From an uncultured virus (IMG/VR IMGVR_UViG_2061766007_000036) (lineage: Duplodnaviria; Heunggongvirae; Uroviricota; Caudoviricetes), in IMG/VR virus record IMGVR_UViG_2061766007_000036: a DNA stretch of 31,751 bases. The stretch is one strand, 5' to 3'. Within the stretch, counting starts at the first letter, position 1. Each line of letters opens with the position of its first letter. This document shows positions 1,444 through 28,742 of this stretch, piece after piece. The notes under the pieces are model-generated. The model was not told the DNA's origin. It ran no database searches and saw only the letters and a list, made by a program, of their open reading frames with translations. A program made the position numbers and the translations under genes.

Positions 1444-1454
1444 GATTGATAATC
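1444..1454 (+). repeat. First exact copy of dispersed polar motif GATTGATAATC (exact copies also at 1710, 3182, 5515, 5893, 6504, 6964, 7477, 8023, 8606, 9684, 14817, 16524, 18243, 19400, 21874, 22264, 23719, 24154, 25642, 25797, 26029, 26192, 28083)
   Basis: Counted by eye: 24 exact copies, all + strand; TATTGATAATC variants at 2521, 10719, 20440, 21200, 27430. Confidence 0.95.
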
Positions 1455-1700
1455 CTGCGTGCTGTGCGTGCGCCCCCTTCGTCTGAGCTCTGCTGTCTGT
1501 GTGCGCTGTGCGCCTCGCTCTGCGCCTCTGCATGCGTGCTCACTGCGTACGCTCTGCGTGTGCTCTGTGCTGTGTGGTCTGCCTCTCGCCTCTCTTGCTC
1601 TGTGCGCCTCTGTGAGCGTGTCTGTGTATGTATGCTCTTGCGTGCTGTGCTGTGCTGTGTGCGCCTGCGCTGTCTGTGCGGTCTCTGCGTGAACTGAGGC
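1455..1700. repeat. Low-complexity A-poor block of CTGTG/TGCGC/GCTCT short repeats
   Basis: Visible reiteration; non-coding; a similar block lies at 2335-2515. Confidence 0.8.
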
Positions 1701-1731
1701 ACGAGTGCTGATTGATAATCCTGTGTGGCGC

Positions 1732-1760
1732 AAAAAAGCGCTCGCCTGTCGGCGGGCGCT
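1732..1760 (-). terminator. Intrinsic terminator
   Basis: GC-rich stem (1738-1746/1751-1759) followed by T6 on - strand. Confidence 0.8.
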
Positions 1761-1770
1761 GTCTGTGCTT

Positions 1771-1923
1771 TTATATGACTGTCCATTCGAACGGCGCTAT
1801 GCGCTTCAGCGTTCTGTATGACTCTGCGCCTGTCCACTCGTTCACATAGGTCTCACGAACCACAAGGGCGTTTCCCTGTTCGTCTCTTTCCACTACTTCA
1901 ACGTTAATAGGCATCTCTTTCAT
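1771..1923 (-). CDS. Hypothetical protein, 50 aa (MKEMPINVEVV...)
   Basis: AGGAGG RBS before ATG 1923. Confidence 0.75.
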   Translation of the reverse strand: MKEMPINVEVVERDEQGNALVVRETYVNEWTGAESYRTLKRIAPFEWTVI

Positions 1924-1963
1924 TGTTTCGTCCTCCTCTTTTCTGTTCTCTGTACAGGGCTTT

Positions 1964-2116
1964 TCAGCCCTGTACAGGAATCCATCTGCCTTCATCGTTT
2001 TTGAGGCTTGCTATCGGCTGTGCGAACCGCTCGAACCTAACTGCGCCGTGTCTGTCTTTTACGCTCCGCATCGTCTCGCCTGTGCGTCTGTCTTTCCATA
2101 CCTTAATGACTGTCAT
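1964..2116 (-). CDS. Hypothetical protein, 50 aa (MTVIKVWKDRRTGETMRSVKDRHG...), not in ORF track
   Basis: AGGAGG RBS; first gene after promoter 2167-2194. Confidence 0.7.
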   Translation of the reverse strand: MTVIKVWKDRRTGETMRSVKDRHGAVRFERFAQPIASLKNDEGRWIPVQG

Positions 2117-2166
2117 TGTTTTGCCCTCCTGTGAAGTTGTTTTGTTGTTGTCTGTTTACACTACCT

Positions 2167-2194
2167 ATTATACATATATTTACATAGATTGCAA
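2167..2194 (-). promoter_or_regulatory. sigmaA promoter TTGCAA-16-TATAAT
   Basis: Direct reading. Confidence 0.65.
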
Positions 2195-2560
2195 TAGCAA
2201 AAACGCATTTTTTCGGACTTTTTCTGCGTTTCTATGTTTTGCACAAAACAGATATGTTTACATTGCTGTCAATTGTGCAATATGCTGACATAGCATTTAT
2301 TCGTGTATTCGGCTGTATTGCGTGTATTGCGTTTGAGCCTCTGTGCGCCATTTTAAGCGCTTTTTGCGTCTGCATATGATGATACCTGTCAAGCGCATTG
2401 TATGAGACCGCTGTGTGCTCTTGTGCGCTCTCTGTGCGCCATGTATGCCTCTGCGCTCTATGCACGCTCTATGCGCATGCCTCACCGTGAGCGCCTCACG
2501 CTCGCTCGCACGGCATACGGTATTGATAATCTTAGCGTGGGCAAAAAAATAAGAGCGGGA

Positions 2561-3056: not shown

Positions 3057-3299
3057 TTACTCCAATGCGTCCATTTCGCCCAACAGGTCATCCGTGAGTG
3101 CATCCACAACTCCACGAATTGCTATCTTCAGAGTCGCTCTGGCAACCGGCGTGGTCACCGGCAGCACCAGCTCGTCGCACTGATTGATAATCTCCAACGC
3201 ATCCATGTACGCCTGCCTCTCCTCATACATCGTCGCTATTCCTCTTGCTCGGTTCAACTTTTCGTCTGTAAGTCTTCTTGCGTCGTTCCCTACGCTCAT
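3057..3299 (-). CDS. Hypothetical protein, 80 aa
   Basis: ATGA coupling to upstream gene. Confidence 0.75.
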   Translation of the reverse strand: MSVGNDARRLTDEKLNRARGIATMYEERQAYMDALEIINQCDELVLPVTTPVARATLKIAIRGVVDALTDDLLGEMDALE

Positions 3300-3652
3300 A
3301 ACTCCACCCCCCTTTCCATCAACTCAAGGGCATCTCCCTCGTTCAAGTAATTCTTTCCGAACTCCTGTCGGAACTGCTCTATCGTCCATCCCTGCTCAAT
3401 CATAGCCTGCTTCTGTGCAAAACTCTGCAACCACTTCATCGTAGCCTTGTTGTTGTGTACAGCGTCAGCTCCGAAGATATGGCATCTTGTGTGGCACAAC
3501 CAATACACCAATCCGTACTGCTCCGATTTCGCCCTCAGTGCGCCCGGAAATGCGTGGTGCTTGTCTAACGGGTCACCGTGCCCGTTCCTACCGCACAAGA
3601 AACAGCGCTTCTGTCCTTGGTCGTAGTCATCGTATGTAATAGTATCTCGCAT
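3296..3652 (-). CDS. Zn-binding HNH-like phage protein (putative nuclease)
   Basis: CFLCG...LDKHH...LCHxxCH...AVH motif. Confidence 0.65.
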   Translation of the reverse strand: MRDTITYDDYDQGQKRCFLCGRNGHGDPLDKHHAFPGALRAKSEQYGLVYWLCHTRCHIFGADAVHNNKATMKWLQSFAQKQAMIEQGWTIEQFRQEFGKNYLNEGDALELMERGVEL

Positions 3653-3869
3653 ACCTCTTCCTTTCACCGTCAGCGTTTACGGACTCTTCCATCACCGTGG
3701 CGATGTTGTGTCCCTTCTTCTTCAGACGGAATACAATGTCTGCCAACCTCGTAGCCCTGTACTCCGTGATTGCCTCCCAACTCGTGAGGCTGCCCTTGGT
3801 TTGAAAATGCGTAAGCACTTCGTTCGTCTGTGTCTCAACGCTCTTCTCCACTGTGTTGTTGTTCATCAT
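3627..3869 (-). CDS. Winged helix-turn-helix protein (HTH_39-like)
   Basis: GSLTSWEAITEYRATRLADIVFRLKKKGHNI...RYARYY. Confidence 0.75.
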   Translation of the reverse strand: MMNNNTVEKSVETQTNEVLTHFQTKGSLTSWEAITEYRATRLADIVFRLKKKGHNIATVMEESVNADGERKRYARYYYIR

Positions 3870-4390
3870 CTTTCCTCCCATTCGTTTAGTAAAGCATTTA
3901 GTCTATCCTCGGGCATTGTTTCTATCCCGTATTGCCTGCACTCCTCTATCAGACCGTCAATTAAGGCACTCATCTGCCGTGAGTCGTAGGAACTGCTCCC
4001 GTAGTACACAACTATGTTCGTGCATCCCTCTAACTTGCTCGGCATCTCCTCGCACTGCCACCCAATCCCGTTGGACTCCCAACTTCGCTTGAACGCTTCC
4101 TTCGCTTTGTCCTGCAAACAAATCACGTCGGATACGCCCCCGATTTCCCGGATGGCAGATTGATAAACCTCGGTCTTCGTCAGACCCAACCGTGAGGCGA
4201 GCTTCCCTATCAGCACCCACGCATACCCGTTGGCATCAAGGCTCCGCTTCCTCTTGTAGTCTTTTATCTGTACCTCAACATCCCGACCGTGGAACTCATC
4301 AAATACATCCTCTATCGTCTCGTCAGTCTGCAATGTAACTATCCTCTTACCGTCACGACTGAACACAAGGTCAATCAACTGAGCCTTCAT
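3866..4390 (-). CDS. NinB/Orf-like recombination accessory protein
   Basis: KRSLDANGYAWVL and GSSSYDSRQMSALID motifs. Confidence 0.75.
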   Translation of the reverse strand: MKAQLIDLVFSRDGKRIVTLQTDETIEDVFDEFHGRDVEVQIKDYKRKRSLDANGYAWVLIGKLASRLGLTKTEVYQSAIREIGGVSDVICLQDKAKEAFKRSWESNGIGWQCEEMPSKLEGCTNIVVYYGSSSYDSRQMSALIDGLIEECRQYGIETMPEDRLNALLNEWEER

Positions 4391-5382: not shown

Positions 5383-5427
5383 AGTAAGTACCTCCGTCAA
5401 TGTAGTAGTAATCTTGTTTACATCCTA

Positions 5428-5456
5428 ATAATAGCATATGTTAATATATATGTCAA
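5428..5456 (-). promoter_or_regulatory. sigmaA promoter TTGACA-17-TATTAT
   Basis: Direct reading. Confidence 0.8.
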
Positions 5457-5562
5457 CACTTATTTTTAATTTTTTTAAATTTTTTTCGCAGCTCGCAGAC
5501 TGCCTGCGCCCATTGATTGATAATCCCCCAACCCAAAAAATCAGAGGGGCTTTCGCCCCTCC

Positions 5563-5760
5563 TCAGTCGTTGTCCCATCTGTTCCGCAGTTCGGTGTCGT
5601 TCGCCTTAGCCCACTCCTTGAGGTCTCTCAGCGTCTCCGTGTGAGTCCCTGCGCTCCACCTCTCGCCGACATACCGCCCTCTCTCGTCCACGTAGTCCGC
5701 ATTGACGTACCATCCGCCGTACATGCTCTTGCCGTAACTTGCCACATGAATCTTAGTCAT
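5563..5760 (-). CDS. Hypothetical protein, 65 aa
   Basis: AGGAGGT RBS; promoter 5806-5834; terminator 5535-5562. Confidence 0.8.
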   Translation of the reverse strand: MTKIHVASYGKSMYGGWYVNADYVDERGRYVGERWSAGTHTETLRDLKEWAKANDTELRNRWDND

Positions 5761-5805
5761 CTTACGTACCTCCTAAGTAATGTTGTCTCTTTACCTTACG
5801 CTCTA

Positions 5806-5834
5806 AGTATAGCATATGCTTACATATGTGTCAA
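5806..5834 (-). promoter_or_regulatory. sigmaA promoter TTGACA-17-TATACT with CATATG-N4-CATATG
   Basis: Direct reading. Confidence 0.8.
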
Positions 5835-5913
5835 GCCTTTTCTGCAAAAAAATAAAATAATTTTTTGCACGCACGTCGTCCGAACCATCTCTGATTGATA
5901 ATCCTCGCCCACT

Positions 5914-5941
5914 AAAAAAAGAGGGGAGCCTCGCTCCCCTC
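5914..5941 (-). terminator. Intrinsic terminator
   Basis: GAGGGGAGC/GCTCCCCTC stem plus T7. Confidence 0.85.
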
Positions 5942-5947
5942 GTCTCT

Positions 5948-6115
5948 TCAGTCTCCGCAGACAACTACGGTAAACTTGCTCCAATGTACACCGCTCACAT
6001 CAGCATAAGAGTTCACCGCAAAGTTCCCTTCGCTCTCCGCCTCGTACGCACTGTCGTACTCGTAGTTGCTCGCTGTAACAAGTTTGTTGCCGAGCCAAAT
6101 CTCGTATCCGTACAT
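5948..6115 (-). CDS. Hypothetical protein, 55 aa (MYGYEIWLGNKLV...), not in ORF track
   Basis: TGATG coupling to upstream gene; GGAGGT RBS. Confidence 0.7.
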   Translation of the reverse strand: MYGYEIWLGNKLVTASNYEYDSAYEAESEGNFAVNSYADVSGVHWSKFTVVVCGD

Positions 6116-6357
6116 CAGTCAGCCACCTCCATCTTGTCGCAGTCGGCTTTGCCGAGTCCGCAGAACGCTTTAATGTGCTTGCCCGTGGTCGCCGACCATC
6201 CCCACCAAAGGCGAGTCAGCGAGCCGTCTGCGTTCCTACGCATCACGGGGGTCGTGTAACTCACGAGGGTCTCCGTGCCGTCATCGTCTACGAGCACCCG
6301 TGCCTTGCCGTAGAAACTCTTCTGACTTGTTGTGGGCTTCAGTTCGTATTCTCTCAT
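6115..6357 (-). CDS. Conserved phage hypothetical protein
   Basis: KSFYGKA...LVSYTT...WSATTGKHI motif typical of phage early genes. Confidence 0.8.
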   Translation of the reverse strand: MREYELKPTTSQKSFYGKARVLVDDDGTETLVSYTTPVMRRNADGSLTRLWWGWSATTGKHIKAFCGLGKADCDKMEVAD

Positions 6358-6406
6358 TGTGGTAGTCTCCCTTCAAAGTATGTTGTCGTGTATTCCCTAC
6401 ACCAAT

Positions 6407-6435
6407 ATACTACCACACATATACGCATATGTCAA
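6407..6435 (-). promoter_or_regulatory. sigmaA promoter TTGACA-17-TAGTAT
   Basis: Direct reading. Confidence 0.75.
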
Positions 6436-6552
6436 CACTAAATCTGCAAAAAATAATAAAAATTTTTGACGGCGTATCTTCAGCCCCTTCGACCGCTCAC
6501 AATGATTGATAATCCCCACCCGCTAAAAAAGGAAGGGCTTTCGCCCTTCCCG

Positions 6553-6819
6553 TCAGCAGTGGAACTCGTATTTGCAGTACCACCAAATCTGTCTGCCCTT
6601 CTTGTAGCGAACTGCGAGGTTGTCGTACCATCCTCTGTCGTGAGCCTTAACCCACTTCTTCGCCTCTTCGTAGTTGGGCAGTGTCATCGTGTCCATCCAT
6701 CGGAACGTTATCTTCTGCTCGTAGTCTCCCTCGTACTCCGCCACTCTTGAGCAATCCCGCTCAATCTGCCTCTTGCTGACCTTAATGGGGTAAACGGTCT
6801 CGCCAACGTAATGTCCCAT
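6553..6819 (-). CDS. Hypothetical protein, 88 aa
   Basis: RBS; promoter 6866-6894. Confidence 0.8.
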   Translation of the reverse strand: MGHYVGETVYPIKVSKRQIERDCSRVAEYEGDYEQKITFRWMDTMTLPNYEEAKKWVKAHDRGWYDNLAVRYKKGRQIWWYCKYEFHC

Positions 6820-6865
6820 AGTATGTACTCCCTTCAGTGTTGTATTGTATTTACCTTACGATGTT

Positions 6866-6894
6866 ATTGTACCACATATGTACACATATGTCAA
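6866..6894 (-). promoter_or_regulatory. sigmaA promoter TTGACA-17-TACAAT with CATATG-N4-CATATG
   Basis: Direct reading. Confidence 0.85.
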
Positions 6895-7014
6895 CACTAT
6901 TTTGCACTTTTTTTGTCTTCTTTTTTTGCCACACCGTCAGCTCCTTCCGCCTCCGCACCATCGGATTGATAATCACACCCACCTAAAAAAGAAGCGGGCT
7001 TCCGCCCGCTCCCG

Positions 7015-7239
7015 TCAAATCTTCCGAATCACATCGTAGTCAAGTACGCACATCCCAAGGCTTCTTCCGTTGTCCCATGAGACGTGAACTGTACCCATAT
7101 CGTCAACGCACCGAACAGTGCCCTCTGTGCCCTCTGCTATCGGTCTTGGGTCATCTCCCATATGGACAAGCACAACCCTGTCACCCTCGCTGTAACGTCT
7201 CTTGACGCTCTTCACAGCGTCTCTACTAATTCCCCACAT
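7015..7239 (-). CDS. DUF4314 domain protein
   Basis: GDRVVLVHMGDDPRPI...GTV..VDDMGTVHVSWDNGRSLG. Confidence 0.85.
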   Translation of the reverse strand: MWGISRDAVKSVKRRYSEGDRVVLVHMGDDPRPIAEGTEGTVRCVDDMGTVHVSWDNGRSLGMCVLDYDVIRKI

Positions 7240-7381
7240 ATTTATCGTCCTCCTTCTAAAGTTTAATCCATCGTCTTGTGGAGCCCTCAGCCCACCGAGT
7301 TATCTTCTGCCGAGGCTACTGCCAAGGCTACCGACTTTCTCGCCTACAGGTAACTGAGCCGTACTCCTGTTTTCTGATATA

Positions 7382-7410
7382 ATAATACCACATATGTAAC
7401 CATATGTCAA
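7382..7410 (-). promoter_or_regulatory. sigmaA promoter TTGACA-17-TATTAT with CATATG-N4-CATATG
   Basis: Direct reading. Confidence 0.85.
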
Positions 7411-7526
7411 CACCTAATCCTAAAAAATTATTATTATTTTTCCGACGCACGTCGTCACCCGTTCGACGACCGCCTTGATTGATAATCTTCCCCCACTAAA
7501 AAAGGGGAGGTTTCCCTCCCCTCGTC

Positions 7527-7871
7527 TCATGCCCACTCTTCCTCTACCACCGCCGCAACGGCTTCGGGGAGAAGGTAGCACCGAATGGAGACATCCATCG
7601 TCTCGGGGTCAATGTATCCGCCCATCCCGAACTCGTAAATGGTCTCCTGCATGAGCACCTCGTTGTGCATGAGGCACTCTTCCGCATCCCACCTGCTGAA
7701 CGTGTAGGAACCCGAAGCGTTGCCTGTCACAGCGTCTTCCGTCCACAGCGTATCAATGAGCCATTGCTCCATCTCTTCCGCCGTGCCGAACTCGGGAACG
7801 TATTCCCTGTTCTCGTCAAGCCATTCTTTCACGTCAGCCTTCACGTGGTTTCTGTATCCGTATCTCTGCAT
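7527..7871 (-). CDS. Acidic conserved phage hypothetical protein
   Basis: VTGNASGSYTF...DVSIRCYLL; promoter 7922-7950; terminator ~7498-7523. Confidence 0.8.
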   Translation of the reverse strand: MQRYGYRNHVKADVKEWLDENREYVPEFGTAEEMEQWLIDTLWTEDAVTGNASGSYTFSRWDAEECLMHNEVLMQETIYEFGMGGYIDPETMDVSIRCYLLPEAVAAVVEEEWA

Positions 7872-7921
7872 TTAAAAGTCCTCCTTCAAAGTGTCAGTTG
7901 TTTACCTCTTGAACTACACTA

Positions 7922-7950
7922 ATTATAGCGTATGTTAACATAGGAGTCAA
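7922..7950 (-). promoter_or_regulatory. sigmaA promoter TTGACT-17-TATAAT
   Basis: Direct reading. Confidence 0.8.
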
Positions 7951-8082
7951 GCACTTATCCTAAACTGTAACTATTTGTAACCACCGTCGTCTCCCAAGCC
8001 CGGTCATCTCGCTCGAGCCCAAGATTGATAATCGCACCCGCATAAAAAAGAGCGGGGCTTTCGCCCCGCTTCGCTCTGCTCA

Positions 8083-8454
8083 TCACCACAGCAGTTTATC
8101 CTTTGCAATCAAGTCCCAATCGGGCTCGTAGCCGTACCGTGCTTCCCACTTCTCCACATCGCAAGGGTCTACAGGGCAGAGCTCTGCATCGAGTTCATCC
8201 ACAGGGCACAGCGTTCCATCCCCAAGGTCGAGCATCTCGTAGCCTTCCTCGTCCGTCACGTGAGGGAACATCTTCAGCAGACAGTCTCTGCAATAAATCC
8301 CTTCATCCACGTAACCGTGTTCATTCCTATACATGAAGCGCCCAACCTCATACAGTTCTTCGGGTTCTTTCTCTTTGCCACACTTGTCACAAGTGCAAGT
8401 GCACTCGCACCACACCTCACCGTGAACTTCTTCCCAAGACTCATATCTAATCAT
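8083..8454 (-). CDS. Zn-finger-like acidic hypothetical protein
   Basis: CDKC...CRDC; GAAGGAGG RBS before ATG 8454. Confidence 0.75.
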   Translation of the reverse strand: MIRYESWEEVHGEVWCECTCTCDKCGKEKEPEELYEVGRFMYRNEHGYVDEGIYCRDCLLKMFPHVTDEEGYEMLDLGDGTLCPVDELDAELCPVDPCDVEKWEARYGYEPDWDLIAKDKLLW

Positions 8455-8501
8455 CGTCAAGTCCTCCTTCAAAGAATCGTGTATCATCTCTAACCATCTA
8501 T

Positions 8502-8530
8502 ATAGTATCACACATCATACCATATGTCAA
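8502..8530 (-). promoter_or_regulatory. sigmaA promoter TTGACA-17-TACTAT
   Basis: Direct reading. Confidence 0.75.
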
Positions 8531-8642
8531 GCAAAAATCCTAAAAAATAATTATTTATTTTAAAGTTTTTCCGTCGTGCCTGCGCCTCTCGCCCGCAGAC
8601 GTATGGATTGATAATCCGCCCCGCCTAAAAAAAGATGGGCGC

Positions 8643-8858
8643 TTATGCGCCCAACGCTAAGTGTTCCTTTGCTTCTTTTGGCTCTTCTTCCTCCCAATAG
8701 GAGACGTTCTCCCAATCAAATGGGGTGTGTTCCCCAAAGCGCTTCTCTACAGGCATCCTATCTGTGAATTGCTTCACGATAGCGCCGTGGTGAATCATCT
8801 TGTACTGAAGGTAGTAGTACCCTGCATCGAACCATTCATCAAATAAGTGCTCGTACAT
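8643..8858 (-). CDS. Hypothetical protein, 71 aa
   Basis: AAGGAGG RBS. Confidence 0.75.
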   Translation of the reverse strand: MYEHLFDEWFDAGYYYLQYKMIHHGAIVKQFTDRMPVEKRFGEHTPFDWENVSYWEEEEPKEAKEHLALGA

Positions 8859-9169: not shown

Positions 9170-9682
9170 TCATGCGTAAACCAACTTATCGCAGAACGTT
9201 TCCATATGTGTAAGCAACGAAGGATTGCCCTCAGCAAGCCGTACAATCGCCCGTACGGCGCTTTTGCGTTTCCTGTACATTTTCCTTTGGTACACCGTGA
9301 AGTTGATGTAGAAGTCCTCTGTGCGCCCGTACAGAGCCTCTGTGGTCTCCGTGGGTGTCGCACCGTCAAGATACCGCATCTGAACCACCAACCGCTCGTC
9401 GGGTTCTAACTTGCTAGCGATGTACTCGATGTTGTGCTTGTGCTCCTCGTGAAGCGCCTGTATATCCCGAAGGTAACTGAGCAAGCCGTCCTCTTGGCTC
9501 AGCATAATCCCTATCTTATCGGGGTCTGCACTCGGCGCTCTCGGCATCCCGTTAAGGCTTGGTGACGATACCGACTCCATACGGTCGCTTAAGACTCGCA
9601 CTCGTTCCGACTGATTCTCTATCTCTCGCTCCGTCCGTCGATATGCTTCCAACCACTGGGTTACGATGTCTTGGCTGCTCAT
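9170..9682 (-). CDS. RinA/ArpU-like phage transcriptional regulator
   Basis: WLEAYR...GMPR...LEPDERLVVQMRYLDG; last gene of replication operon. Confidence 0.7.
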   Translation of the reverse strand: MSSQDIVTQWLEAYRRTEREIENQSERVRVLSDRMESVSSPSLNGMPRAPSADPDKIGIMLSQEDGLLSYLRDIQALHEEHKHNIEYIASKLEPDERLVVQMRYLDGATPTETTEALYGRTEDFYINFTVYQRKMYRKRKSAVRAIVRLAEGNPSLLTHMETFCDKLVYA

Positions 9683-9692
9683 AGATTGATAA

Positions 9693-10067
9693 TCAGAACG
9701 GGAGGTCTTCCGAAGCGTCAACGTCGTCGTACTTCTCCGCTCTGTTCCCGTTCGGGGAGTCGCAGAACTCTACACTTTCCACCACGAACTCCACGTTTCT
9801 CCTGCGCTCGCCGTTCTTGTTCGTCCACTCACGAACCTGCGGGGTCGACTCAACAAGAATCTTCTTGCCTTTCGTGAAGTACTCGGCGATGAACTCCGCC
9901 GTGTTCTTCCACGCCACGTAGTCAAAGAAGTCCGTGATTTTGTTTCCGTTCGCATCTTTGAACCGTCTGTCAACTGCTAACACGAAACTAACCACAGGTG
10001 TGCCCGTGTCCGTGTGCCTCAGCTCGGGGTCAGCCGTGAATCGTCCTGTCTGAATACATCTGTTCAT
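9693..10067 (-). CDS. ssb: Single-stranded DNA-binding protein
   Basis: MNRCIQTGRFTADPELR...TDFF..VAW; acidic DLPF tail. Confidence 0.95.
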   Translation of the reverse strand: MNRCIQTGRFTADPELRHTDTGTPVVSFVLAVDRRFKDANGNKITDFFDYVAWKNTAEFIAEYFTKGKKILVESTPQVREWTNKNGERRRNVEFVVESVEFCDSPNGNRAEKYDDVDASEDLPF

Positions 10068-14694: not shown

Positions 14695-14827
14695 CAGGAA
14701 ATCAGCCGTTTTAAGTAAAAATATTTACCGCAACCGTGCTTTGCTAATAAAAATCCTGCAAGAACACTTGACATCCTGTGCGGAATATGTCTAAATAGTA
14801 GCACAACTATCGAAAGGATTGATAATC

Positions 14828-15157: not shown

Positions 15158-16776
15158 AAGCCGCTATCTACACTCGTGTCTCGACGACCCATCAGATTGA
15201 TAAAGACAGCCTGCGGGTACAGCAGCGGGAGCTGCTACAGTACGCCGAGCTGCTGTTGGGCACAAAGGAGTGCGTGGTGTTTGAGGACGCAGGATTCAGT
15301 GCAAAGAACACAGACCGCCCGAAGTTCCAAGAGATGATGTCCCGCATCCGTGCGGGCGAGTTCACTCACCTGCTTGTGTGGAAGATTGACCGTGTGTCCC
15401 GAAATCTTTTGGACTTCACGAATATGTACGCCGAGTTAAAGGCGTTAGGAGTCACCTTCATCTCGAAGAACGAGCAGTTCGATACGTCGTCCGCCATCGG
15501 CGAGGCAATGTTGAAAATCATACTGGTCTTCGCCGAACTGGAAAGGAACATGACATCCGAACGTGTGACTGCCGTAATGCAGTCCCGAGCCAAGAGCGGA
15601 GCGTGGAATGGGGGTCGTGTCCCCTACGGGTACTCTTACGACAAGGAGACGAAGGAGTTTTCCCTTAACAGACAGGAGTCCCTCGTTGTTAAAAAGTTAT
15701 TTAGGACGTACGAAGCGACCAAGTCCATAATAGCTACTACCCGAAACTTAAACGAAGCAGGAATCCGAACGAGAGCAGGAGCAAGTTGGAGCACCATCGG
15801 AGTTCACAAGATTCTGCGAAACCCATTCTACATCGGAACCTATCGATACAACGTCCACAGCCCGGACGGGAAGCACCCGGAGGAAGAATGGACGTTGATT
15901 GAAAATCATCACGTCCCGCTCATCGAAGCCGCTCAGTTCGACCGAGTCCAGGAAATCTTGTCACGGAACCAGAAGCTCAACCCGGATGACGTTAACTACT
16001 TCTCCCCGCATATCTACATCTTCCACGGGCTGTGTTTCTGCGGACACTGCGGGTCTAAGATGACACCCAACTCGTGCAAGCCCACGAAGTACGGGCATGC
16101 ATCCGCCACCTACGGGTGCGCCAAGAGGCGAAGCAAGGCATCGTATTGTTCTAACCGTTACCTCAACGAAGAAATCCTTGCCGATTTTGTCTTCACCGTC
16201 ATCCACAACTTACTGTCCGTTTCTGCCGAGCCACCGTCAGAAGGCTCTCTGTTCGCCTTACAAAGCCTTTTGCTCAAGGGGGTAAAAGAACCCAAGGGAA
16301 TAGAAGAACGCTCTCTCCGTGCCGTCTATGAAGCCACAGGCGGTAATTCTGCTCCGATAGAGTTCTCTCCTCGCTTTGACGCTTATGACCGTGAGGAATC
16401 CGAAATGCTATCGACCGAGTTGAAACGCACCGAGTCCACGCTCAAGAGGACGAAACGTTTGTACGTGAACGGGGGCATCGACGACGAGGAGTACGCTGCT
16501 CTGACTGAGGCGTTAGACAGTCAGATTGATAATCTGAAGCGGCGTCAGTCCGAGGCTGCTGTTGAAGCCGACGAGTTCCGTGAAAAGGCATCGTACTATT
16601 TGTTGGCAGACATGCTAACGACCGAGCCGTTTAACCCCAAAAAGTTCAACTCCGTCGTGTCCAAGAAAGCGAGAGAGCAGTTCGTACAGCAGGTTATTAA
16701 ACGCTTAATCATCTCCGATGGTCACGTTACCGTGATGGAGTTCCGTAGCGGACTCACGATAGAGTTCAAGTATTAG
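15154..16776 (+). CDS. Large serine recombinase (integrase)
   Basis: AIYTRVST catalytic motif, DRVSR, recombinase domain PYGY, Zn ribbon CGHC...C. Confidence 0.95.
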   Translation: MKAAIYTRVSTTHQIDKDSLRVQQRELLQYAELLLGTKECVVFEDAGFSAKNTDRPKFQEMMSRIRAGEFTHLLVWKIDRVSRNLLDFTNMYAELKALGVTFISKNEQFDTSSAIGEAMLKIILVFAELERNMTSERVTAVMQSRAKSGAWNGGRVPYGYSYDKETKEFSLNRQESLVVKKLFRTYEATKSIIATTRNLNEAGIRTRAGASWSTIGVHKILRNPFYIGTYRYNVHSPDGKHPEEEWTLIENHHVPLIEAAQFDRVQEILSRNQKLNPDDVNYFSPHIYIFHGLCFCGHCGSKMTPNSCKPTKYGHASATYGCAKRRSKASYCSNRYLNEEILADFVFTVIHNLLSVSAEPPSEGSLFALQSLLLKGVKEPKGIEERSLRAVYEATGGNSAPIEFSPRFDAYDREESEMLSTELKRTESTLKRTKRLYVNGGIDDEEYAALTEALDSQIDNLKRRQSEAAVEADEFREKASYYLLADMLTTEPFNPKKFNSVVSKKAREQFVQQVIKRLIISDGHVTVMEFRSGLTIEFKY

Positions 16777-17747: not shown

Positions 17748-17748
17748 G

Positions 17749-19652: not shown

Positions 19653-19681
19653 TTGACATACACTACATATAGTGTTATAAT
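19653..19681 (+). promoter_or_regulatory. sigmaA promoter TTGACA-17-TATAAT containing inverted repeat ACACTA-N4-TAGTGT
   Basis: Direct reading. Confidence 0.85.
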
Positions 19682-19940: not shown

Positions 19941-19994
19941 GAACAGGGGCGGAGAAATCCGCCCCCTTCTTTTGCGCTTATGCGAGATTGAAAA

Positions 19995-20255
19995 TCACTG
20001 CACCTCTTTGTCCCAGTCGTCAACCGGGGCTCCGATTTCCTTGAACTGTTCTCTCATGAAGTCCTTCATTTCTGCGAAGCGTGAACGGAACTCCGCCAAA
20101 TCCTCGACCGCTGTAACAGAGTCCGCTAATTCTTTGTATGCGCAGGAGTTAAGGTACATGAAGTGGGACAGTCCTCTAACAAACGCCTTCTGTTTTCTCG
20201 AAGACCTCATCAGAGCAAGAACCGCAATCGCAAGTATTGCGACAAGAATCTTCAT
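19995..20255 (-). CDS. Hypothetical protein with N-terminal membrane anchor
   Basis: MKILVAILAIAVLAL; TAATG coupling. Confidence 0.7.
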   Translation of the reverse strand: MKILVAILAIAVLALMRSSRKQKAFVRGLSHFMYLNSCAYKELADSVTAVEDLAEFRSRFAEMKDFMREQFKEIGAPVDDWDKEVQ

Positions 20256-20428: not shown

Positions 20429-20446
20429 CAGCATCCTCCTATTGAT

Positions 20447-21819: not shown

Positions 21820-21908
21820 CACCCTATATTAAATTTTTAGGATTATTTTTTGACGGAGAAAGGTGGCTTGACCGATTGATAATCCTGCACGCCAAAAAAA
21901 GAAGAGGC

Positions 21909-23712: not shown

Positions 23713-23781
23713 GCTTTAGATTGATAATCCGCCCCACCAACAAAAAAAGGAGCCCCGAAGGGCTCCATCGTCTGTCTGCCG

Positions 23782-24024: not shown

Positions 24025-24167
24025 AGTAGTACCTCCTAAAGAATGTTATCTTGTTTACGGTACTAATATACCATATATTTACATAGATGTCAAGCAACAG
24101 AATGAAACTGTAACCTTTTGTAACCATCCACTTCGAGGTCGTATCGAGGCGTTGATTGATAATCCTG

Positions 24168-24265: not shown

Positions 24266-24360
24266 CATGTGCAGGTGGATTGATAATATTGCGTGCCGAG
24301 CCACAGAACATGCAATCATCCGACACCACAAAAAATATTTAAAAATAATTAAAAAATGTG

Positions 24361-25320: not shown

Positions 25321-25576
25321 ACTCTGTATCCATCTTTGCCCCGCAGGACGGGCAGAACGGCGTTTTCTGCACGTTTTCCCCTCCGCAGGCACTGCACCTC
25401 ACCCTGTTCCAATATCCTTCCAAACGAAGCCACTTGGCACTGTACGCACCCGTGATACTCTGCGACTGTATGGAATCGAGGATTCTGTTCAAGTCCCTTC
25501 CGCCCTTGGAACAGAAGGAGTAGCATCCGAGATGTTCGTTTATGTATTTACGTAGCGTATTAATCTCTATGACCAT
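25319..25576 (-). CDS. Zn-ribbon phage protein
   Basis: CSACG...FCPSCGAKM. Confidence 0.75.
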   Translation of the reverse strand: MVIEINTLRKYINEHLGCYSFCSKGGRDLNRILDSIQSQSITGAYSAKWLRLEGYWNRVRCSACGGENVQKTPFCPSCGAKMDTE

Positions 25577-26504
25577 ATTTCAGCACCTTCACCTGTTCCA
25601 TGATATCTTTCGTGTACGCTTTCATCTCGTCCTTCCAATCGGATTGATAATCGTACGTCGTGGGCTGCCCGCTTCGAATCCGGTTGACGTAGCCCTCGAG
25701 CAACGGGAAATCTTTCTCGTAGCAGTGGAAGCTATTGACACGATGTACGTATTTCCCGACTCCAACGCCGAGTATCTCCGCCACCCGTTCCTGTAGGATT
25801 GATAATCCGAAGGCGTTCATGAACGTCGCTTTGCACGCATCGTTGCTTCGAAACAGCACGTCGCACTCCAACTTATCATCCCGTATCATAAATTGGATGT
25901 GCTGTAGGCAGGCGGGGTGTTCAGACCCAACGTCTTCTGCGTGCCGAACGTCAATGACCGCTCGCCGTGAGTACGGGTTCCGTCGCAGCTCGTTGATGCA
26001 GAAATCCACCTGGTCGATGTAAATCCCCGATTGATAATCGTAGTTGGTCATACGGTCGTGGTACGTATACGCCCACTTCCCTCGGTAAATCTCGAAATCA
26101 AGGATGCCGTCCAACAGTTCCATTACGTACTGCTGTAACTCACGCTGCCCCCCGATGAACAGCCGGGAAATCCTGGGCTCCGCTGTCGGGTGATTGATAA
26201 TCATGGTCAGCCCGCACTCCTTTTGCAGGCAGTCCCAATCCGGGCAGGGGTAAATCTTACCGTATCGGAGCAGCGCCTCTAACGCCCGATGATAGCCGAT
26301 TGATAATGTTTCCCCGGACACGGCGACCTCCCGCTCCGGGGGCTCGCCTGCGGTCGGGTAGTCTCGGCTAACTATCTCATTGCAATAGTTACAAAATGTA
26401 ACAGAAGGTGACGAAACGGTGACAGAATTTGGGCTTTCCGTCGGGCTCGGCTCCTCACGACGATTTTGTAATTTTTTGTTACGATTTGCGAATAATTTTC
26501 TCAC
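25560..26504 (-). CDS. Thymidylate synthase (ThyA-fold); start uncertain
   Basis: SRRA, HPACLQ catalytic Cys, FRSND..ATFMN, SFHCY. Confidence 0.85.
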   Translation of the reverse strand: MRKLFANRNKKLQNRREEPSPTESPNSVTVSSPSVTFCNYCNEIVSRDYPTAGEPPEREVAVSGETLSIGYHRALEALLRYGKIYPCPDWDCLQKECGLTMIINHPTAEPRISRLFIGGQRELQQYVMELLDGILDFEIYRGKWAYTYHDRMTNYDYQSGIYIDQVDFCINELRRNPYSRRAVIDVRHAEDVGSEHPACLQHIQFMIRDDKLECDVLFRSNDACKATFMNAFGLSILQERVAEILGVGVGKYVHRVNSFHCYEKDFPLLEGYVNRIRSGQPTTYDYQSDWKDEMKAYTKDIMEQVKVLKYGHRD

Positions 26505-26630
26505 GACGACCTCACGACTTTCACGAAAAATTTAACGATTTTTTTACGAATTTTACGACGAAATTTGCGAAAAAATTTACGACGAAAATTACGAATTTCA
26601 CGAAATTTTACGACGAAAAATTCACGAATC
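26455..26630. repeat. Array of (T/C)ACGA units separated by A/T tracts
   Basis: Many ACGA copies at roughly helical spacing. Confidence 0.8.
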
Positions 26631-26828
26631 TTCCACCTCATCGACAACCGATTTTGCTTCGGCGTACGATTTGCAGGCAATCAGTTGTCCATCTGGGCCC
26701 ATTGCGAACCACACAGACCCAACCTGCCAAATCTGCCACCCTTTGTACTCAGTCATAGAATTGGTCGTTCCAATACGCATACCACACGAGGGCAACGATT
26801 GCGATGAATCCGAACACTAAGATAGCAA

Positions 26829-27311
26829 TCATTTAGTTTCCTCCTTCGGAAGGTCGTCGAGCTCGGGCTTGTGCAGATACGTCCACCACAGACACATCAC
26901 GTTCCACACAAACGCTCTGTCATGTCTTTCGTCATCCCACCCGCCTCGGCACTTAATATAGTGTCTGACAGCGCTATCCACGTAACAATGAAGTGGAATG
27001 CCTTTCTCCCAATTTCTCTCTGCGTATTTCTTCGCACCTTCTTCGAAATGCTTTGACACTTCGAGTAGCATCTCTTCAACGCTCCACTCTCGGTAGCTTG
27101 CGAACTTATAAAGAACCACGAACAGCTGCGCCGTGTCTCTGAACTTTACAAAGTTGTTCAGTGAGGACAGGATGCCATCTCCATTGTCCCCGAGCAGTTC
27201 TGCTACGACATCAAGCGGGAGCAGGTCGCATCTTCCCTTTCCCTCTGTCACATCCCTTACCGCACCGCTTTCAAACTCCTGTCTTGCTCCGCTGTCCAAA
27301 ATCATACGCAT
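26829..27311 (-). CDS. DUF5664 (dATP/dGTP diphosphohydrolase N-terminal) domain protein
   Basis: GAVRD...KGRCDLLP...EGAKKYAERNWEKG...SAVRH...H..A..WN. Confidence 0.85.
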   Translation of the reverse strand: MRMILDSGARQEFESGAVRDVTEGKGRCDLLPLDVVAELLGDNGDGILSSLNNFVKFRDTAQLFVVLYKFASYREWSVEEMLLEVSKHFEEGAKKYAERNWEKGIPLHCYVDSAVRHYIKCRGGWDDERHDRAFVWNVMCLWWTYLHKPELDDLPKEETK

Positions 27312-27316
27312 ACCCC

Positions 27317-27475
27317 CGATTGAAAAAGATTGGAAATCCTGTCTCTATTGAAAATATTGGAAATAATCTTGATAATCCTAATATTGGAAATCCAAAATAT
27401 TGAAAATCTCAAATATTGAAAATCCAAAATATTGATAATCCGAAGATTGGAAATCTGAATATTGGAAATATTTTC
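27317..27475 (+). repeat. Tandem array of ~11 degenerate copies of the polar motif, (G/T)ATTGRWAAT(C/A)
   Basis: Copies at 27382, 27398, 27414, 27430 (16-bp period), 27445, 27460 and upstream. Confidence 0.9.
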
Positions 27476-27495
27476 AATGTCTACATATTATTAAA

Positions 27496-27864
27496 CTATT
27501 TAATAACGTCGTCAGATTCCTCAATGAACAGCATGACCTTCGTCTCCTTGGCGTAGACGAACTCATCGGAGAATCCTACGACGTACTTCCTGTTGTCGTC
27601 GGGAAGTTTCTTGTACTTCACCAACGCATCGAGGATGAACTTCTTGGCGAACGCCACATTATCGTAGTCACGCTTCTTATTCCCTTCCATCCAAAGAAAC
27701 CGTATTCTAATAGGCTTCTCGAATTTAGGGAGCGGTGATATGAACCACCCTATCTGTTCTTCGAGGTTCTTCTTAAAAGAGGCCGCTTGGTACTTGTTCG
27801 TTCTGCATACACGCACGTAGTCGTTCAGACTCGGCAATTTCAGCGGAATCGTTACTTCTGTCAT
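27496..27864 (-). CDS. RusA-like Holliday junction resolvase
   Basis: LPSLN...RDYDN..AKKFILDALV...DDN. Confidence 0.85.
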   Translation of the reverse strand: MTEVTIPLKLPSLNDYVRVCRTNKYQAASFKKNLEEQIGWFISPLPKFEKPIRIRFLWMEGNKKRDYDNVAFAKKFILDALVKYKKLPDDNRKYVVGFSDEFVYAKETKVMLFIEESDDVIK

Positions 27865-27893
27865 ACCAAACAGCCTCCGATTGAAAATCTATA

Positions 27894-28742
27894 TCACCAG
27901 TTGACATAGCAGTCTAATGTAGCCTCGCTCACGCCATCGCAGAAGTCGTAGACCTTGCCCCATCTGCCAAACGGTGTCCAATATACTGCTCCGTTCTTTT
28001 TATCCTGCGCTACGGTACTCGCCAACACGATATACCCGTTCTCGTCGCACACGAACCCGTCAGAATCCACGTGTCTGCCCGGGATTGATAATCCGCCACC
28101 CGACAACACCCTCTGACTGTAGTACGTCCACTTCCATCCGTTATAGTGGCACGTACCCATCCATCTGAAGTCTTTCGGACTTACATATGCCTCTGTAGAC
28201 GTATCTTCCACGCTCTGCGTATCCTCAACGACCGTTTCTACAGGTTCCTCTACAGTCACAGTCTCCTCTACCGTATCTTCCACGGTCTCTACTGGAACCG
28301 CTTCTACAGGTTTGCTCTCCTGTTTCTGCCTTTCAGCCTGTTCCTGCGCCTTTCTCTGTGCTTCTACTCTCGCCAAGTACTTCTGATACGCTATATTAGA
28401 GACAGCCATCTCTGTGGGCTCTGCAATTCCGTCGAAATCCTCCGGATTGAAAATATTGCCCCGTTCTGAGGCAAGATTGAAAATATGTGTACTAAGTCGA
28501 GTGGTTTCCGAAATCGAGTGAGTGTCGACCGCAAACGCTACATTTTCTCCTTTTTCTTCTTCTGTATTTCCCGTCTCTTCTTCTGTGTTTTCCTCGTCAG
28601 TCCATCTCTCTGTAGGGGAGTACTCTTCGGGCTGTGGAGTGAATGTATCTTCTTTATCTGTTCTTCCGTATATGATAGCGAGGATGATTAGTACTCCTAT
28701 CATGGCGATACAGAAGGAGATGATTCTCTGTCGTCTTGTCAT
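27894..28742 (-). CDS. Membrane-anchored protein with acidic linker and 3D-domain-like (lytic transglycosylase-like) C-terminus
   Basis: N-terminal TM; YIVLAS...TPFG..GKVYD...LDCYVNW. Confidence 0.55.
   Translation of the reverse strand: MTRRQRIISFCIAMIGVLIILAIIYGRTDKEDTFTPQPEEYSPTERWTDEENTEEETGNTEEEKGENVAFAVDTHSISETTRLSTHIFNLASERGNIFNPEDFDGIAEPTEMAVSNIAYQKYLARVEAQRKAQEQAERQKQESKPVEAVPVETVEDTVEETVTVEEPVETVVEDTQSVEDTSTEAYVSPKDFRWMGTCHYNGWKWTYYSQRVLSGGGLSIPGRHVDSDGFVCDENGYIVLASTVAQDKKNGAVYWTPFGRWGKVYDFCDGVSEATLDCYVNW

Follow-up and report, generated by a model that had tools for sequence, protein, structure and literature searches.

We observed that a short word, which reads GATTATCAATC in the leftward, dominant direction of transcription, recurs with fixed polarity in the window, that is, the whole stretch of viral DNA analysed here (31,751 nucleotides). 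The word is a sharply bounded double-stranded DNA site of 10-11 bp under purifying selection, and it lies mainly in the least transcribed DNA, between a terminator and the next promoter. Our preferred reading, held tentatively and at slightly below even chances, is that it serves as the docking site of a putative asymmetric regulator that blocks leftward transcription, a function similar to that of stoperators. The putative regulator is most likely phage-encoded.

An exact search of the 31.7-kb window revealed 24 copies of GATTGATAATC, on the + strand only, starting at positions from 1444 to 28083. This matches the preliminary description of this DNA, which had reported the same copies and none on the opposite strand. 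With at most one mismatch we counted 38 sites on the + strand vs 0 on the - strand, and with at most two mismatches 50 vs 3. No copy occurred in any of 100 dinucleotide-preserving shuffles (mean 0.00), in line with the earlier estimate of far below one copy by chance. The core GATTNNCAAT (minus-strand reading) had 40 matches vs 0 on the opposite strand; in 200 first-order Markov simulations the two strands together averaged 1.05 matches, with a maximum of 6. All window counts refer to early, replication and lysogeny genes only, as the late genes lie outside the window. The one-mismatch variants named earlier were all present: TATTGATAATC at 2521, 10719, 20440, 21200 and 27430, GATTGAAAATC at 15897, 19986 and 27879, and GATTGATAATA at 1379 and 24278.

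The interrupted palindrome pointed out earlier, GATT-GAT-AATC, is visible in the sequence and has an asymmetric centre; in the leftward reading the core is GATTWYCAAT. The edges of the 11-mer are sharp, and conservation in the flanks is limited to a T-run upstream and a G-rich stretch, in a subset of sites. The near two-fold symmetry (GATT-N3-AATC) suits a symmetric dimer blind to direction, which is against reading the site as a roadblock. Since the word is nearly symmetric, polarity must stem from the central WYC.

The exact copies are given below. L044 and L248 are the two related contigs used for comparison (~76% DNA identity to the window).

1444..1454 (+): non-coding and T-poor tract, flanked by the terminator near 1760 and by promoter P1171
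1710..1720 (+): 11 nt after the T-run of a leftward terminator
3182..3192 (+): within leftward ORF 3060-3299
5515..5525 (+): 9 nt after a terminator T-run; -35 of P5456 58 nt further
5893..5903 (+): 10 nt after a T-run; -35 of P5834 58 nt further
6504..6514 (+): 10 nt after a T-run; -35 of P6435 68 nt further
6964..6974 (+): 10 nt after a T-run; -35 of P6894 69 nt further
7477..7487 (+): 10 nt after a T-run; -35 of P7410 66 nt further
8023..8033 (+): 10 nt after a T-run; -35 of P7950 72 nt further
8606..8616 (+): 10 nt after a T-run; -35 of P8530 75 nt further
9684..9694 (+): gene junction; overlaps the SSB TGA stop and ends 1 nt before the ArpU/sigma-r4-like ATG
14817..14827 (+): between SD and ATG (5' UTR) of the + strand XRE/RstR-like repressor gene; -35 of leftward early promoter P14694 122 nt further
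16524..16534 (+): antisense within the + strand serine-integrase CDS; identical at the same place in L248
18243..18253 (+): 20 nt after the T-run of leftward terminator 18311-18282; contains the TGA stop of the + strand RHH-like gene 18060-18248; identical in L044
19400..19410 (+): 3' end of leftward HTH_26 gene 19384-19659
21874..21884 (+): 9 nt after a T-run; -35 of P21819 54 nt further; identical in L044
22264..22274 (+): 9 nt after the T-run of terminator 22310-22289
23719..23729 (+): 12 nt after the T-run of terminator 23766-23749
24154..24164 (+): divergent intergenic region; -35 of leftward P24093 60 nt further; + strand promoter-like site at 24168 with its -35 3 nt after the word
25642..25652 (+): thymidylate-synthase-like (TS-like) CDS, frame 0, DYQSD; identical in L044
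25797..25807 (+): TS-like CDS, frame 1, GLSIL (ALIML in the family); identical in L044
26029..26039 (+): TS-like CDS, frame 0, DYQSG; TATTTTCAATC in L044
26192..26202 (+): TS-like CDS, frame 2, MIINH; identical in L044
28083..28093 (+): within the leftward 282-aa ORF 27897-28742; one change in L044

The following sites differ from the word by one mismatch.

1379..1389 (+): minus reading TATTATCAATC
2521..2531 (+): GATTATCAATA; 11 nt after the T-run of terminator 2574-2551
4158..4168 (+): GTTTATCAATC; NinB-like CDS; identical in L248
10719..10729 (+): GATTATCAATA; sigma-r4-like CDS; identical in L248
11329..11339 (+): GATTATCAAAC; junction of DnaC-like and sigma-r4-like genes
15897..15907 (+): GATTTTCAATC; antisense within the integrase CDS; identical in L248
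19247..19257 (+): GATTACCAATC; intergenic
19986..19996 (+): GATTTTCAATC; adjoins hairpin 19946-19965 and overlaps a leftward TGA stop; GATTTCCAATC in L044
20440..20450 (+): GATTATCAATA; abuts the RBS of leftward gene 20258-20434; identical in L044
21200..21210 (+): GATTATCAATA; intergenic
24278..24288 (+): TATTATCAATC; divergent intergenic region
26298..26308 (+): CATTATCAATC; TS-like CDS, frame 1, TLSIG; identical in L044
27879..27889 (+): GATTTTCAATC; abuts the RBS of the RusA gene

Leftward intrinsic terminators preceded 12 of the 24 exact copies, with 9-20 nt from the T-run to the word (11 at 9-12 nt, one at 20). We defined strong leftward terminators as terminator-like hairpins with at least 6 GC pairs (n = 15); the word followed 11 of them and was missing after 4. 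Together with 19 leftward consensus promoters, these 15 hairpins frame small ORFs in the window. One tract repeats the arrangement:

5400..8700 (-): seven consecutive leftward units, each consisting of promoter, small gene, GC hairpin with T-run, ~10 nt of G-rich sequence, and the word

The promoters of the units follow the consensus TTGACA-17-TRTG-TATAAT with an A/T-rich upstream tract. At orthologous sites the spacing from terminator to word differed (9 vs 7 nt; 20 vs 11 nt), and therefore this geometry is not exactly fixed. Duplicated modules of a terminator plus the word that share an ancestor could also account for the 10-nt spacing. From the word to the next -35 we measured 54, 58, 58, 60, 66, 68, 69, 72, 75 and 122 nt at 10 of the 19 leftward promoters; as these distances vary, the word is unphased to promoters. 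The other 9 lacked a copy within 140 nt. The word overlapped none of the 19 leftward consensus sigma-A promoters, the nearest copy being 54 nt upstream of a -35, and therefore it is no classical operator. These promoters share a separate conserved palindrome in the spacer, which could be the real repressor operator. The spread of sites was uneven: it followed the boundaries of leftward transcription units, with a concentration on one operon, and exact copies were absent from the 5-kb replication operon (9.7-14.6 kb).

A single thymidylate-synthase-like gene carries five copies of the word in all three reading frames, which encode the residues TLSIG, MIINH, DYQSG, GLSIL and DYQSD. The word was found in 0 of 11 more distant TS-like homologues (55-60% identity), and the residues there differ (e.g. 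ALIML, TLPEA). By these comparisons, the copies have altered the protein, with selection acting at the DNA level. The earlier proposal of an oriented site gains from this, as the word is imposed on coding sequence despite amino-acid changes. At the front of the same operon we found a tandem array:

27318..27478 (+): ~10-12 degenerate units, ending 12 nt before an ATG

Its units are GATTWYCAATM and the shorter TTYCAAT at a spacing of 9-16 nt. The array precedes the PF18909-domain gene 26832-27311, between this gene and the RusA gene, and occupies the same place in L044. We considered origin iterons and rejected them, as the array (27.3-27.5 kb) is away from the replisome-organiser gene (12.2-13.0 kb). 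Repeats within the latter gene are A/T-rich and lack the word. A tandem array at the start of an operon points to a DNA-binding regulator over a nick, packaging or ejection signal.

Such a regulator might act without any roadblock, if the word were the loading or nucleation site of a silencer that reaches the next promoter by sliding, spreading or looping. KorB acts from dispersed operators on plasmid RK2 at a distance. The variable, unphased -35 distances (54-122 nt), the dense array at one operon start, and the many dispersed high-affinity sites accompanied by weaker variants agree with this reading. We nevertheless regard it as rather unlikely: strict polarity would be unnecessary, the word is placed relative to the terminator (9-12 nt) and not to the promoter, 9 of 19 promoters have no site nearby, and Pfam, PHROG and NCBIfam scans of 95 window ORFs revealed no ParB/KorB-like gene.

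Both relatives retain the word, its direction and its positions, so that the proposed search of related phages gave a positive answer. Leftward and opposite matches to the core numbered 14 vs 1 in L044 and 10 vs 0 in L248. Site columns were identical in 243 of 269 cases vs a background of 76.0% (p ~1.5e-9), and five of seven aligned exact sites were unchanged in L044. The earlier proposal of an oriented recognition site of a phage-specific kind is supported by this conservation well above background. The host is a Firmicute-type rumen bacterium. Enrichment in the host chromosome, which would have made this a generic host motif, was not seen in five candidate host-clade genomes (1.7-2.7 Mb; 0-2 copies each), of which the true host may not be one.

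All 38 sites face leftward transcription, and those at 14817, 15897, 16524, 18243 and 19986, in or beside + strand genes, are unflipped. The preliminary description had placed 14817, 16524 and 18243 within + strand genes. This was correct for 16524, which is inside the integrase gene, but 14817 and 18243 only mark gene boundaries, and both also match the leftward order of terminator, word and promoter. The claim that orientation is independent of gene direction is weaker than stated earlier: it depends on few sites, mainly the two integrase-internal ones, 16524 and 15897 (one mismatch), both unchanged in L248. Leftward (lytic-direction) antisense transcription through the lysogeny genes explains their polarity equally well.

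Among the readings raised in the preliminary description is a strand-specific DNA signal, read by machinery that travels in one direction along the genome; it could be a Chi-like site, a T5-like nick site, a signal for packaging or ejection, or a polar barrier to replication forks. KOPS, Chi and T5 nick sites are likewise strand-polar short words, and this reading would account for the absence of opposite-strand copies at up to one mismatch, the two positionally conserved sites antisense within the + strand integrase gene, an unflipped variant adjoining a + strand terminator-like hairpin, and in-gene sites retained despite amino-acid changes. KOPS and Chi, however, are host-wide and their skew flips at origin and terminus. 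The probable origin is at ~12.5-12.6 kb, within the replisome-organiser gene, and the polarity was constant across it; this speaks against a KOPS/Chi-like signal linked to bidirectional replication. The 0-2 copies in each candidate host-clade genome also speak against a host word of the Chi/KOPS type. Further, the sites follow the borders of transcription units and are concentrated on one operon, no exact copy occurs in the replication operon, and a tandem array just before an ATG would have no obvious role. We therefore judge a strand-specific signal improbable.

We assign a similarly low probability to the word being the boundary or crossover of mobile promoter-gene-terminator cassettes, either PeSL-like or with a site-specific recombination core, and being kept by recombination. 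PeSLs are promoter-early stem-loop cassettes of T4-type phages (PMC2839356). The window resembles them in its arrays of small non-essential early genes, each enclosed by a strong sigma-70-type promoter and a terminator stem-loop; its repeated regulatory parts may also serve to exchange genes between relatives, as in PeSLs (PMC2839356). The units in the window have near-identical regulatory parts. In L248 the same genes and promoters occur in different combinations: a P7410-like promoter there drives the homologue of gene 6118-6357, and two alignments end exactly at the word. Assembled contigs of public runs from other rumen samples lose homology in intergenic parts, e.g. at 2544, 5829, 7502 and 8548. 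Against this, 11 bases are too short for homologous exchange and the flanks are unconserved, the breakpoints in the rumen-sample contigs are 12-15 nt or more off the word or in promoters, and a serine integrase was the sole recombinase among the scanned window ORFs. In PeSLs the promoter and stem-loop are themselves the repeated parts, whereas here there is an extra 11-mer, also within genes and as an array; the in-gene copies in three frames, the array and the antisense integrase sites would be left unexplained.

We consider it quite improbable that a phage sigma factor or phage RNA polymerase uses the word as part of its promoters in middle or late transcription. Its orientation agrees with leftward transcription, and two sigma-region-4-like proteins are encoded in the window. 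In other large phages a polar 10-mer found after terminators, GGTTAGCAAA, is the -35 part of a promoter (GGTTAGCAAA-N14-TGTAAT...AGGAGG-ATG). These phages share only a DUF932 gene with the window, and homologues of both sigma-like proteins were found in 0 of 5 of their records; therefore the motif is an analogue and not a relative. No -10-like element, conserved second element or start-site context was found after the word. Some copies abut an RBS or ATG and leave no space for a transcript start, and ten tandem promoters at 9-16 nt spacing are implausible. Least probable is action in RNA, as an mRNA binding or cleavage site (GAUUAUCAAUC): co-orientation with most mRNAs is strict and some copies directly precede ribosome-binding sites, but half of the exact copies lie past an intrinsic terminator and ahead of the following promoter, in DNA that yields little RNA, and conserved copies are antisense to integrase mRNA.

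The blocking site that we prefer is best compared with stoperators, which PMC9283540 describes as asymmetric 13-mers, present in more than 20 copies in promoters and in the short spaces between genes; they point along transcription and are functionless if reversed. Under our preferred reading, nearly an even bet in our estimate, the word would work like the stoperators of cluster A mycobacteriophages, here coupled to terminators; it is not a member of that family. As with stoperators (L5 gp71, TipsytheTRex repressor), one short word is dispersed in more than 20 copies over gene junctions and short intergenic spaces, and its copies keep the same orientation towards lytic transcription; orientation-dependent function is a feature of stoperators (PMC9283540). 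The number of sites is similar (24 exact, 38 at up to one mismatch), and so is the temperate lifestyle, as integrase and repressor genes are present in the window. There are also differences. The word is a nearly palindromic 10-11 bp and not an asymmetric 13-mer, half of its copies are ~10 nt from intrinsic terminators, it overlaps no early promoter, and several copies are within genes, in addition to the tandem array. Stoperators are bound by a monomeric two-domain repressor, whereas no gp71-type protein (HTH plus stoperator domain) was found among the 95 window ORFs scanned. The XRE protein beside the early promoter (109 aa) matches no such repressor among solved structures, and small XRE/RstR-like regulators only. 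The host, too, is of the Firmicute type and not a mycobacterium.

A T-run followed by a one-way protein site, as proposed here, also resembles the Reb1/TTF-I terminators of eukaryotic RNA polymerase I, in which a protein binds the DNA about a dozen bp downstream of a T-rich release element. This protein is Myb-like, acts in eukaryotic rDNA and stops polymerase in a single orientation. In the window the word comes after a complete hairpin terminator of the bacterial type, and the two systems are not related.

We infer the roadblock from the sequence, and the protein that would bind the word is putative. The bound protein would be a one-way roadblock for leftward RNA polymerase. With the site ~10 bp past the T-run, a polymerase that failed to terminate would be halted with its active centre still in the U-tract; the stall distance is taken from E. 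coli roadblock experiments. The array, the in-gene sites and the RBS-abutting sites may silence particular genes outright, chiefly the nucleotide-modification-like operon. The antisense integrase sites and the site at the repressor 5' end may shield the lysogeny genes from leftward antisense transcription. According to PMC11364550, elongating RNA polymerase and polymerase that slides along DNA after termination are both stopped by DNA-bound proteins. In summary, such a roadblock would make each promoter-gene-terminator unit an insulated module and, if true, would mean that read-through is stopped between many small early genes.

We searched the whole window for the pattern GATTGATAATC and obtained 24 exact copies, all on the + strand and where the preliminary description had placed them; no copy of the word was present in any of 100 dinucleotide-preserving shuffles of the window. 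With up to one mismatch there were 38 sites on the + strand and 0 on the - strand, and with up to two mismatches 50 and 3, so the proposed strand bias held. The three variant forms named in that description were all found in the window at up to one mismatch. The looser pattern GATTNNCAAT (minus-strand reading) occurred 40 times versus 0, against a chance expectation of approximately 1 for both strands summed. In the leftward direction the word reads GATTATCAATC, and GATTWYCAAT on the minus strand was used as its working core. Its edges were sharp: flanking columns of the 24 aligned exact sites were not conserved, except for an upstream T-run and a G-rich stretch at about half of them. Across the 38 sites, positions 3, 4, 7, 8 and 9 were invariant, and change was tolerated at positions 5 (A/T), 6 (T/C) and 11 (C/A). 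The word is a real, strongly selected, one-way recognition site. A full-text literature search for the word itself gave nothing relevant among the matches listed. Fur, CodY and DnaA boxes are partly similar in their half-sites only, and the flanks that these boxes need are not conserved here; we rejected them.

The 95 ORFs of the window were scanned against Pfam and PHROG. Its gene content shows that the window covers the early, replication and lysogeny genes of a temperate phage of Firmicute type. The minus strand carries Gam-like, Erf-like, replisome-organiser, DnaC-like, SSB, NinB-like and RusA genes, together with a thymidylate-synthase-like (TS-like) gene, genes for a PF18909-domain protein and DUF932, and numerous small unknowns; two minus-strand proteins have a sigma region-4-like domain as their sole domain. 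The + strand block encodes an XRE/RstR-like repressor, a large serine integrase and RHH proteins. Three small RHH-like paralogues (phrog_13890; 16786-16971, 17030-17212 and 18060-18248, + strand) lie in and beside this lysogeny block. In a contig of run X6, 14857 is followed directly by 16582; the 1724 missing bases comprise nearly the whole integrase gene and the greater part of the XRE repressor gene. This contig may be a natural non-lysogenic deletion variant. The closest protein relatives came from MAGs labelled Clostridiales, Oscillospiraceae, Acutalibacteraceae and Faecousia, and the phage DNA was seen in bovine gut metagenomes of 11 studies. The source is an uncultured rumen phage of the Clostridia. 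Megablast with 25 kb of the window found no DNA-level relatives among 50,697 phage records, and two 40-base probes from the window ends had no match among viral contigs. Five candidate host-clade genomes contained 0-2 copies of the word each (6 in ~10.7 Mb). Therefore the word is probably not a generic host word, and the host enrichment raised in the preliminary description as an objection was not seen in these five genomes.

The search of related phages which that description suggested was successful, as two contigs carried the word with its strand bias. The metagenome contig L044 (10.5 kb) is syntenic with window 17.5-29.6 kb (71-78% DNA identity in long aligned blocks); its core count is 14 on the gene strand, with 1 loose match opposite. 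The viral contig L248 (14.3 kb) is syntenic with window 2.5-17.3 kb (~76-80% identity) and has 10 core copies versus 0, mostly GATTTTCAATC. Seven exact window sites could be aligned to L044: five were unchanged, one had 1 change and one had 2, which gives 74/77 identical letters versus a background of 74.7% (p ~6e-7). When both relatives were pooled, 243/269 letters were identical at sites with at most one mismatch, versus a background of 76.0% (p ~1.5e-9). The word persisted in the relatives despite reshuffled neighbouring genes. Relatives collected through the leftmost ORF (34 loci) did not contain the word, with core counts of 0-1; the XRE protein returned the L248 contig alone; and among 43 viral and 80 metagenome loci collected through the TS-like and DUF932 proteins the word was found in L044 only. 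We also scanned viral contigs for the pattern TTTTTT-N7-13-word, which matched at least 116 loci. Among the matches listed two loci had two copies and none had more; with at most two copies per locus, we regarded these matches as chance and rejected them as further carriers.

The word is dense in one operon. A tandem array of ~10-12 degenerate units, spaced 9-16 nt and including GATTTCCAATC, GATTATCAATA and GATTTTCAATA, lies between RusA and the PF18909-domain gene and ends 12 nt ahead of the ATG of the latter; L044 keeps the array at the same place. In the TS-like gene of the same operon there are five sites, four of them exact and one reading CATTATCAATC, and between them they occupy all three reading frames. 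At these five positions the protein reads TLSIG, MIINH, DYQSG, GLSIL and DYQSD. Eleven homologues (55-60% identity) differ there (e.g. TLPEA, MVV.., ALIML, NYEGD), and the word is absent from all eleven. Therefore the DNA word was imposed on the TS-like protein; it is strong enough to rewrite one protein at five places. Exact copies are, in contrast, absent from the replication operon (5 kb, 9.7-14.6 kb), which has only two variants. The operon at 25322-27311 (minus strand) encodes the PF18909-domain protein, a 57-aa ORF, the TS-like protein and a zinc-ribbon protein. PF18909 is the N-terminal domain of dATP/dGTP diphosphohydrolase, and the TS-like protein has a 140-aa N-terminal extension and ThyA and CMP 5-hydroxymethylase as its best solved matches (E ~1e-12 to 1e-14). 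The phage may modify its DNA bases.

Twelve exact sites follow a GC-rich hairpin terminator: counted from its T-run, eleven begin at 9-12 nt, with six at exactly 10 nt, and the twelfth at 20 nt. Of the leftward terminator-like hairpins, 15 have at least 6 GC pairs; the word follows 11 of these, and the four strong ones that lack it are at 4783, 9164, 17237 and 31611. After the word, in the leftward direction, there is a GC-rich spacer, then an A/T-rich tract and then a near-consensus promoter. The leftward promoters (n = 19; TTGACA-17-TATAAT, mostly with TRTG) hardly differ from one another, and this extends to the spacer ACATATGT..ACATATGTGG and the 5' UTR. For ten promoters, the next -35 lay 54, 58, 58, 60, 66, 68, 69, 72, 75 and 122 nt from the word, and an exact copy was absent within 140 nt of the remaining nine. 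The word was unphased with the promoter and is not followed by a -10-like element. Since these distances varied and the terminator spacing was short, we concluded that the word is placed relative to the terminator and not to the promoter. Other copies of the word were found at gene junctions:

9684, + strand: junction site, overlaps the SSB stop codon TGA and ends 1 nt before the next ATG
20440, + strand: abuts the RBS of a 59-aa gene
27879, + strand: abuts the RBS of RusA
14817, + strand: 5' UTR site of the XRE gene (+ strand), between its SD and its ATG

The word contributes to stop codons at 9693-9695, 19995-19997 and 18246-18248. The TGA of two leftward genes is made of the preceding T and the first GA of the word, and the terminal TGA of a + strand RHH-like gene belongs to GATTGATAATC. 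Two T-poor low-complexity tracts of 200-250 nt (window 1450-1700 and 2300-2500), with CACAG, GCGCA and GCACAGC repeats in the minus reading, come after two word sites, in the stretch from the terminator to the next promoter; long ORFs in them (e.g. 1193-1837) are probably spurious. The promoter spacer ACATATGT-NN-ACATATGTGG is conserved in near-identical promoters, e.g. 1171-1143, 5834-5806, 6894-6866 and 21819-21791. Palindromic A/T tracts such as TCCTAAATTTTTAGGA lie upstream of promoters, and cTTTGAAGGAGGAC is common to the 5' UTRs of leftward promoters. Embedded in the promoters, the conserved palindrome may serve as a second operator, bound by the prophage repressor or by an Aca-like regulator.

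The sharp edges of the word, the dispersed strong copies with weaker variants, the array, and the placement in poorly transcribed DNA between terminator and promoter point to recognition by a DNA-binding protein. We propose that such a protein would act as a one-way roadblock that stops leftward RNA polymerase. E. coli polymerase stalls ~14 bp before an EcoRI-type block. At a site ~10 bp past the T-run, a read-through polymerase would be halted with its active centre still in the U-tract; this would strengthen termination and keep the units insulated. Through the array and the five intragenic sites, the nucleotide-metabolism operon would be kept silent, and the antisense sites would shield the integrase and repressor genes from leftward transcription. 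DNA-bound proteins are known to stop polymerase both during elongation and while it slides after termination (PMC11364550). The candidate readers are the XRE/RstR-like protein (14828-15157), the three RHH-like proteins, the HTH_26 (19384-19659), wHTH (3630-3881) and 124-aa HTH (29017-29388) proteins and the two sigma region-4-like proteins (9173-9682 and 10522-11433). The XRE/RstR-like candidate has a site in its own 5' UTR, and one RHH-like candidate gene ends in a site. Choosing the reader by conservation failed, because XRE, ArpU-like, wHTH and RHH proteins were all 57-91% identical in the relatives, so that none was singled out.

Several points count against the roadblock. Polarity does not follow from the near two-fold symmetry of the word; early promoters never overlap the word, and their own conserved palindrome may be the true repressor operator; the word is missing at four strong terminators; orthologous terminator-to-word spacing is unequal (9 vs 7 nt; 20 vs 11 nt); and the constant spacing could be inherited from a single duplicated module. 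Silencing by a protein on the word that acts at a distance, in place of a block to passing polymerase, seems unlikely to us.

Polarity bears on a further alternative. As nearly all genes are leftward, a word fixed to the strand and a word fixed to transcription coincide at most sites. In the + strand lysogeny block (14828-17212), sites 16524 and 15897 lie inside and 14817 at the 5' end, and none is flipped; the two integrase-internal ones were unchanged in L248 (16524 exact, 15897 as GATTTTCAATC). A small + strand RHH-like gene has its stop codon in site 18243, which also lies 20 nt after a leftward terminator. Site 19986 is 20 nt past a + strand terminator-like hairpin and is not flipped, and 24154 adjoins a + strand promoter-like -35 and is 60 nt upstream of a leftward -35. 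No flipped copy was found in any + strand unit of the window, therefore the orientation is fixed for the region. All sites in or beside + strand units are also in the path of leftward transcription; there is a conserved frame, minus-strand ORF 17286-17777, and leftward promoters are at 18003 and 18956. Thus the claim that orientation is independent of gene direction stood in so far as sites in + strand units are unflipped, but the same sites all point along leftward transcription, and they fit fixation to the DNA strand and to lytic-direction transcription alike. The A/T-rich repeats at 12527-12636, in the replisome-organiser linker, we take to be the probable origin by analogy with lambda O and SPP1 gene 38; the polarity flip at an origin that had been asked about did not occur across them. 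In contigs of other samples, 12385-12640 of this linker showed a spike in depth as well as loose ends and joints, suggestive of hypervariability or of collapsed repeats. A strand-specific signal at the DNA level is in our opinion distinctly unlikely. Doubtful to about the same degree as the silencer is the broader reading in which the word is read on DNA by a one-way traveller (a polar fork or translocase barrier, or a strand-specific nicking site, with the terminator link secondary) or by a bacterial counterpart of Reb1/TTF-I, a dedicated one-way termination protein at every intrinsic terminator. If true, either mechanism would be undescribed for phages of Firmicutes.

We considered it quite improbable that the word marks recombination boundaries. 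Promoters and genes of the window occur in other combinations in L248, two L248 alignments end exactly at the word, and the homology of contigs from four other rumen samples breaks in intergenic parts (2544, 5829, 7502, 8548). However, none of the breaks listed is at the word, and these metagenome contigs, matched at 85% likeness, are weak evidence. A promoter element is highly improbable and an RNA element scarcely credible, as the sharp word, its strong and weak copies, the array and the poorly transcribed placement argue against both.

The closest known system in its working is the stoperators of cluster A, with which the word shares the one-way arrangement and the gene-junction positions. 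According to PMC9283540, a stoperator is an asymmetric site that occurs more than 20 times, in promoters and in the short spaces between genes; it is oriented with transcription and does not work if reversed. Unlike them, the window has no operator copy inside an early promoter, and a gp71-type repressor was not found in it. The stoperator literature included nothing on Firmicute phages among the matches listed. To our knowledge, dispersed one-way junction words have been experimentally worked out only for cluster A mycobacteriophages. In its cassette architecture the window corresponds to PeSLs as described in PMC2839356, to which the word is an extra element.

Phages that share only the DUF932 gene with the window (contigs of 55-138 kb) lack the word, and many of them carry another polar 10-mer, GGTTAGCAAA. 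Large ones (115-138 kb; L008, L011-L018, L024, L025 and records G001, G002, G004, G005) have it in 9-18 copies, clustered in ~18 kb, with 0-1 on the opposite strand. In a complete 138-kb record there were 18 versus 0, 15 of them within 18 kb. Its copies lie 2-4 nt past terminators and form the -35 part of GGTTAGCAAA-N14-TGTAAT..AGGAGG-ATG promoters, which may be a phage-specific promoter class. Homologues of the two sigma-like proteins of the window were found in 0/5 records of these phages. Although 7/11 letters are alike, we rejected GGTTAGCAAA as a diverged form of the word, as it is a -35 element, and treated it as an analogy, not a homologue.

If a one-way roadblock protein is confirmed, terminator-coupled insulation of promoter-gene-terminator modules would be a general phage strategy, and synthetic biology in Gram-positive bacteria would gain a compact transcription insulator that depends on orientation.
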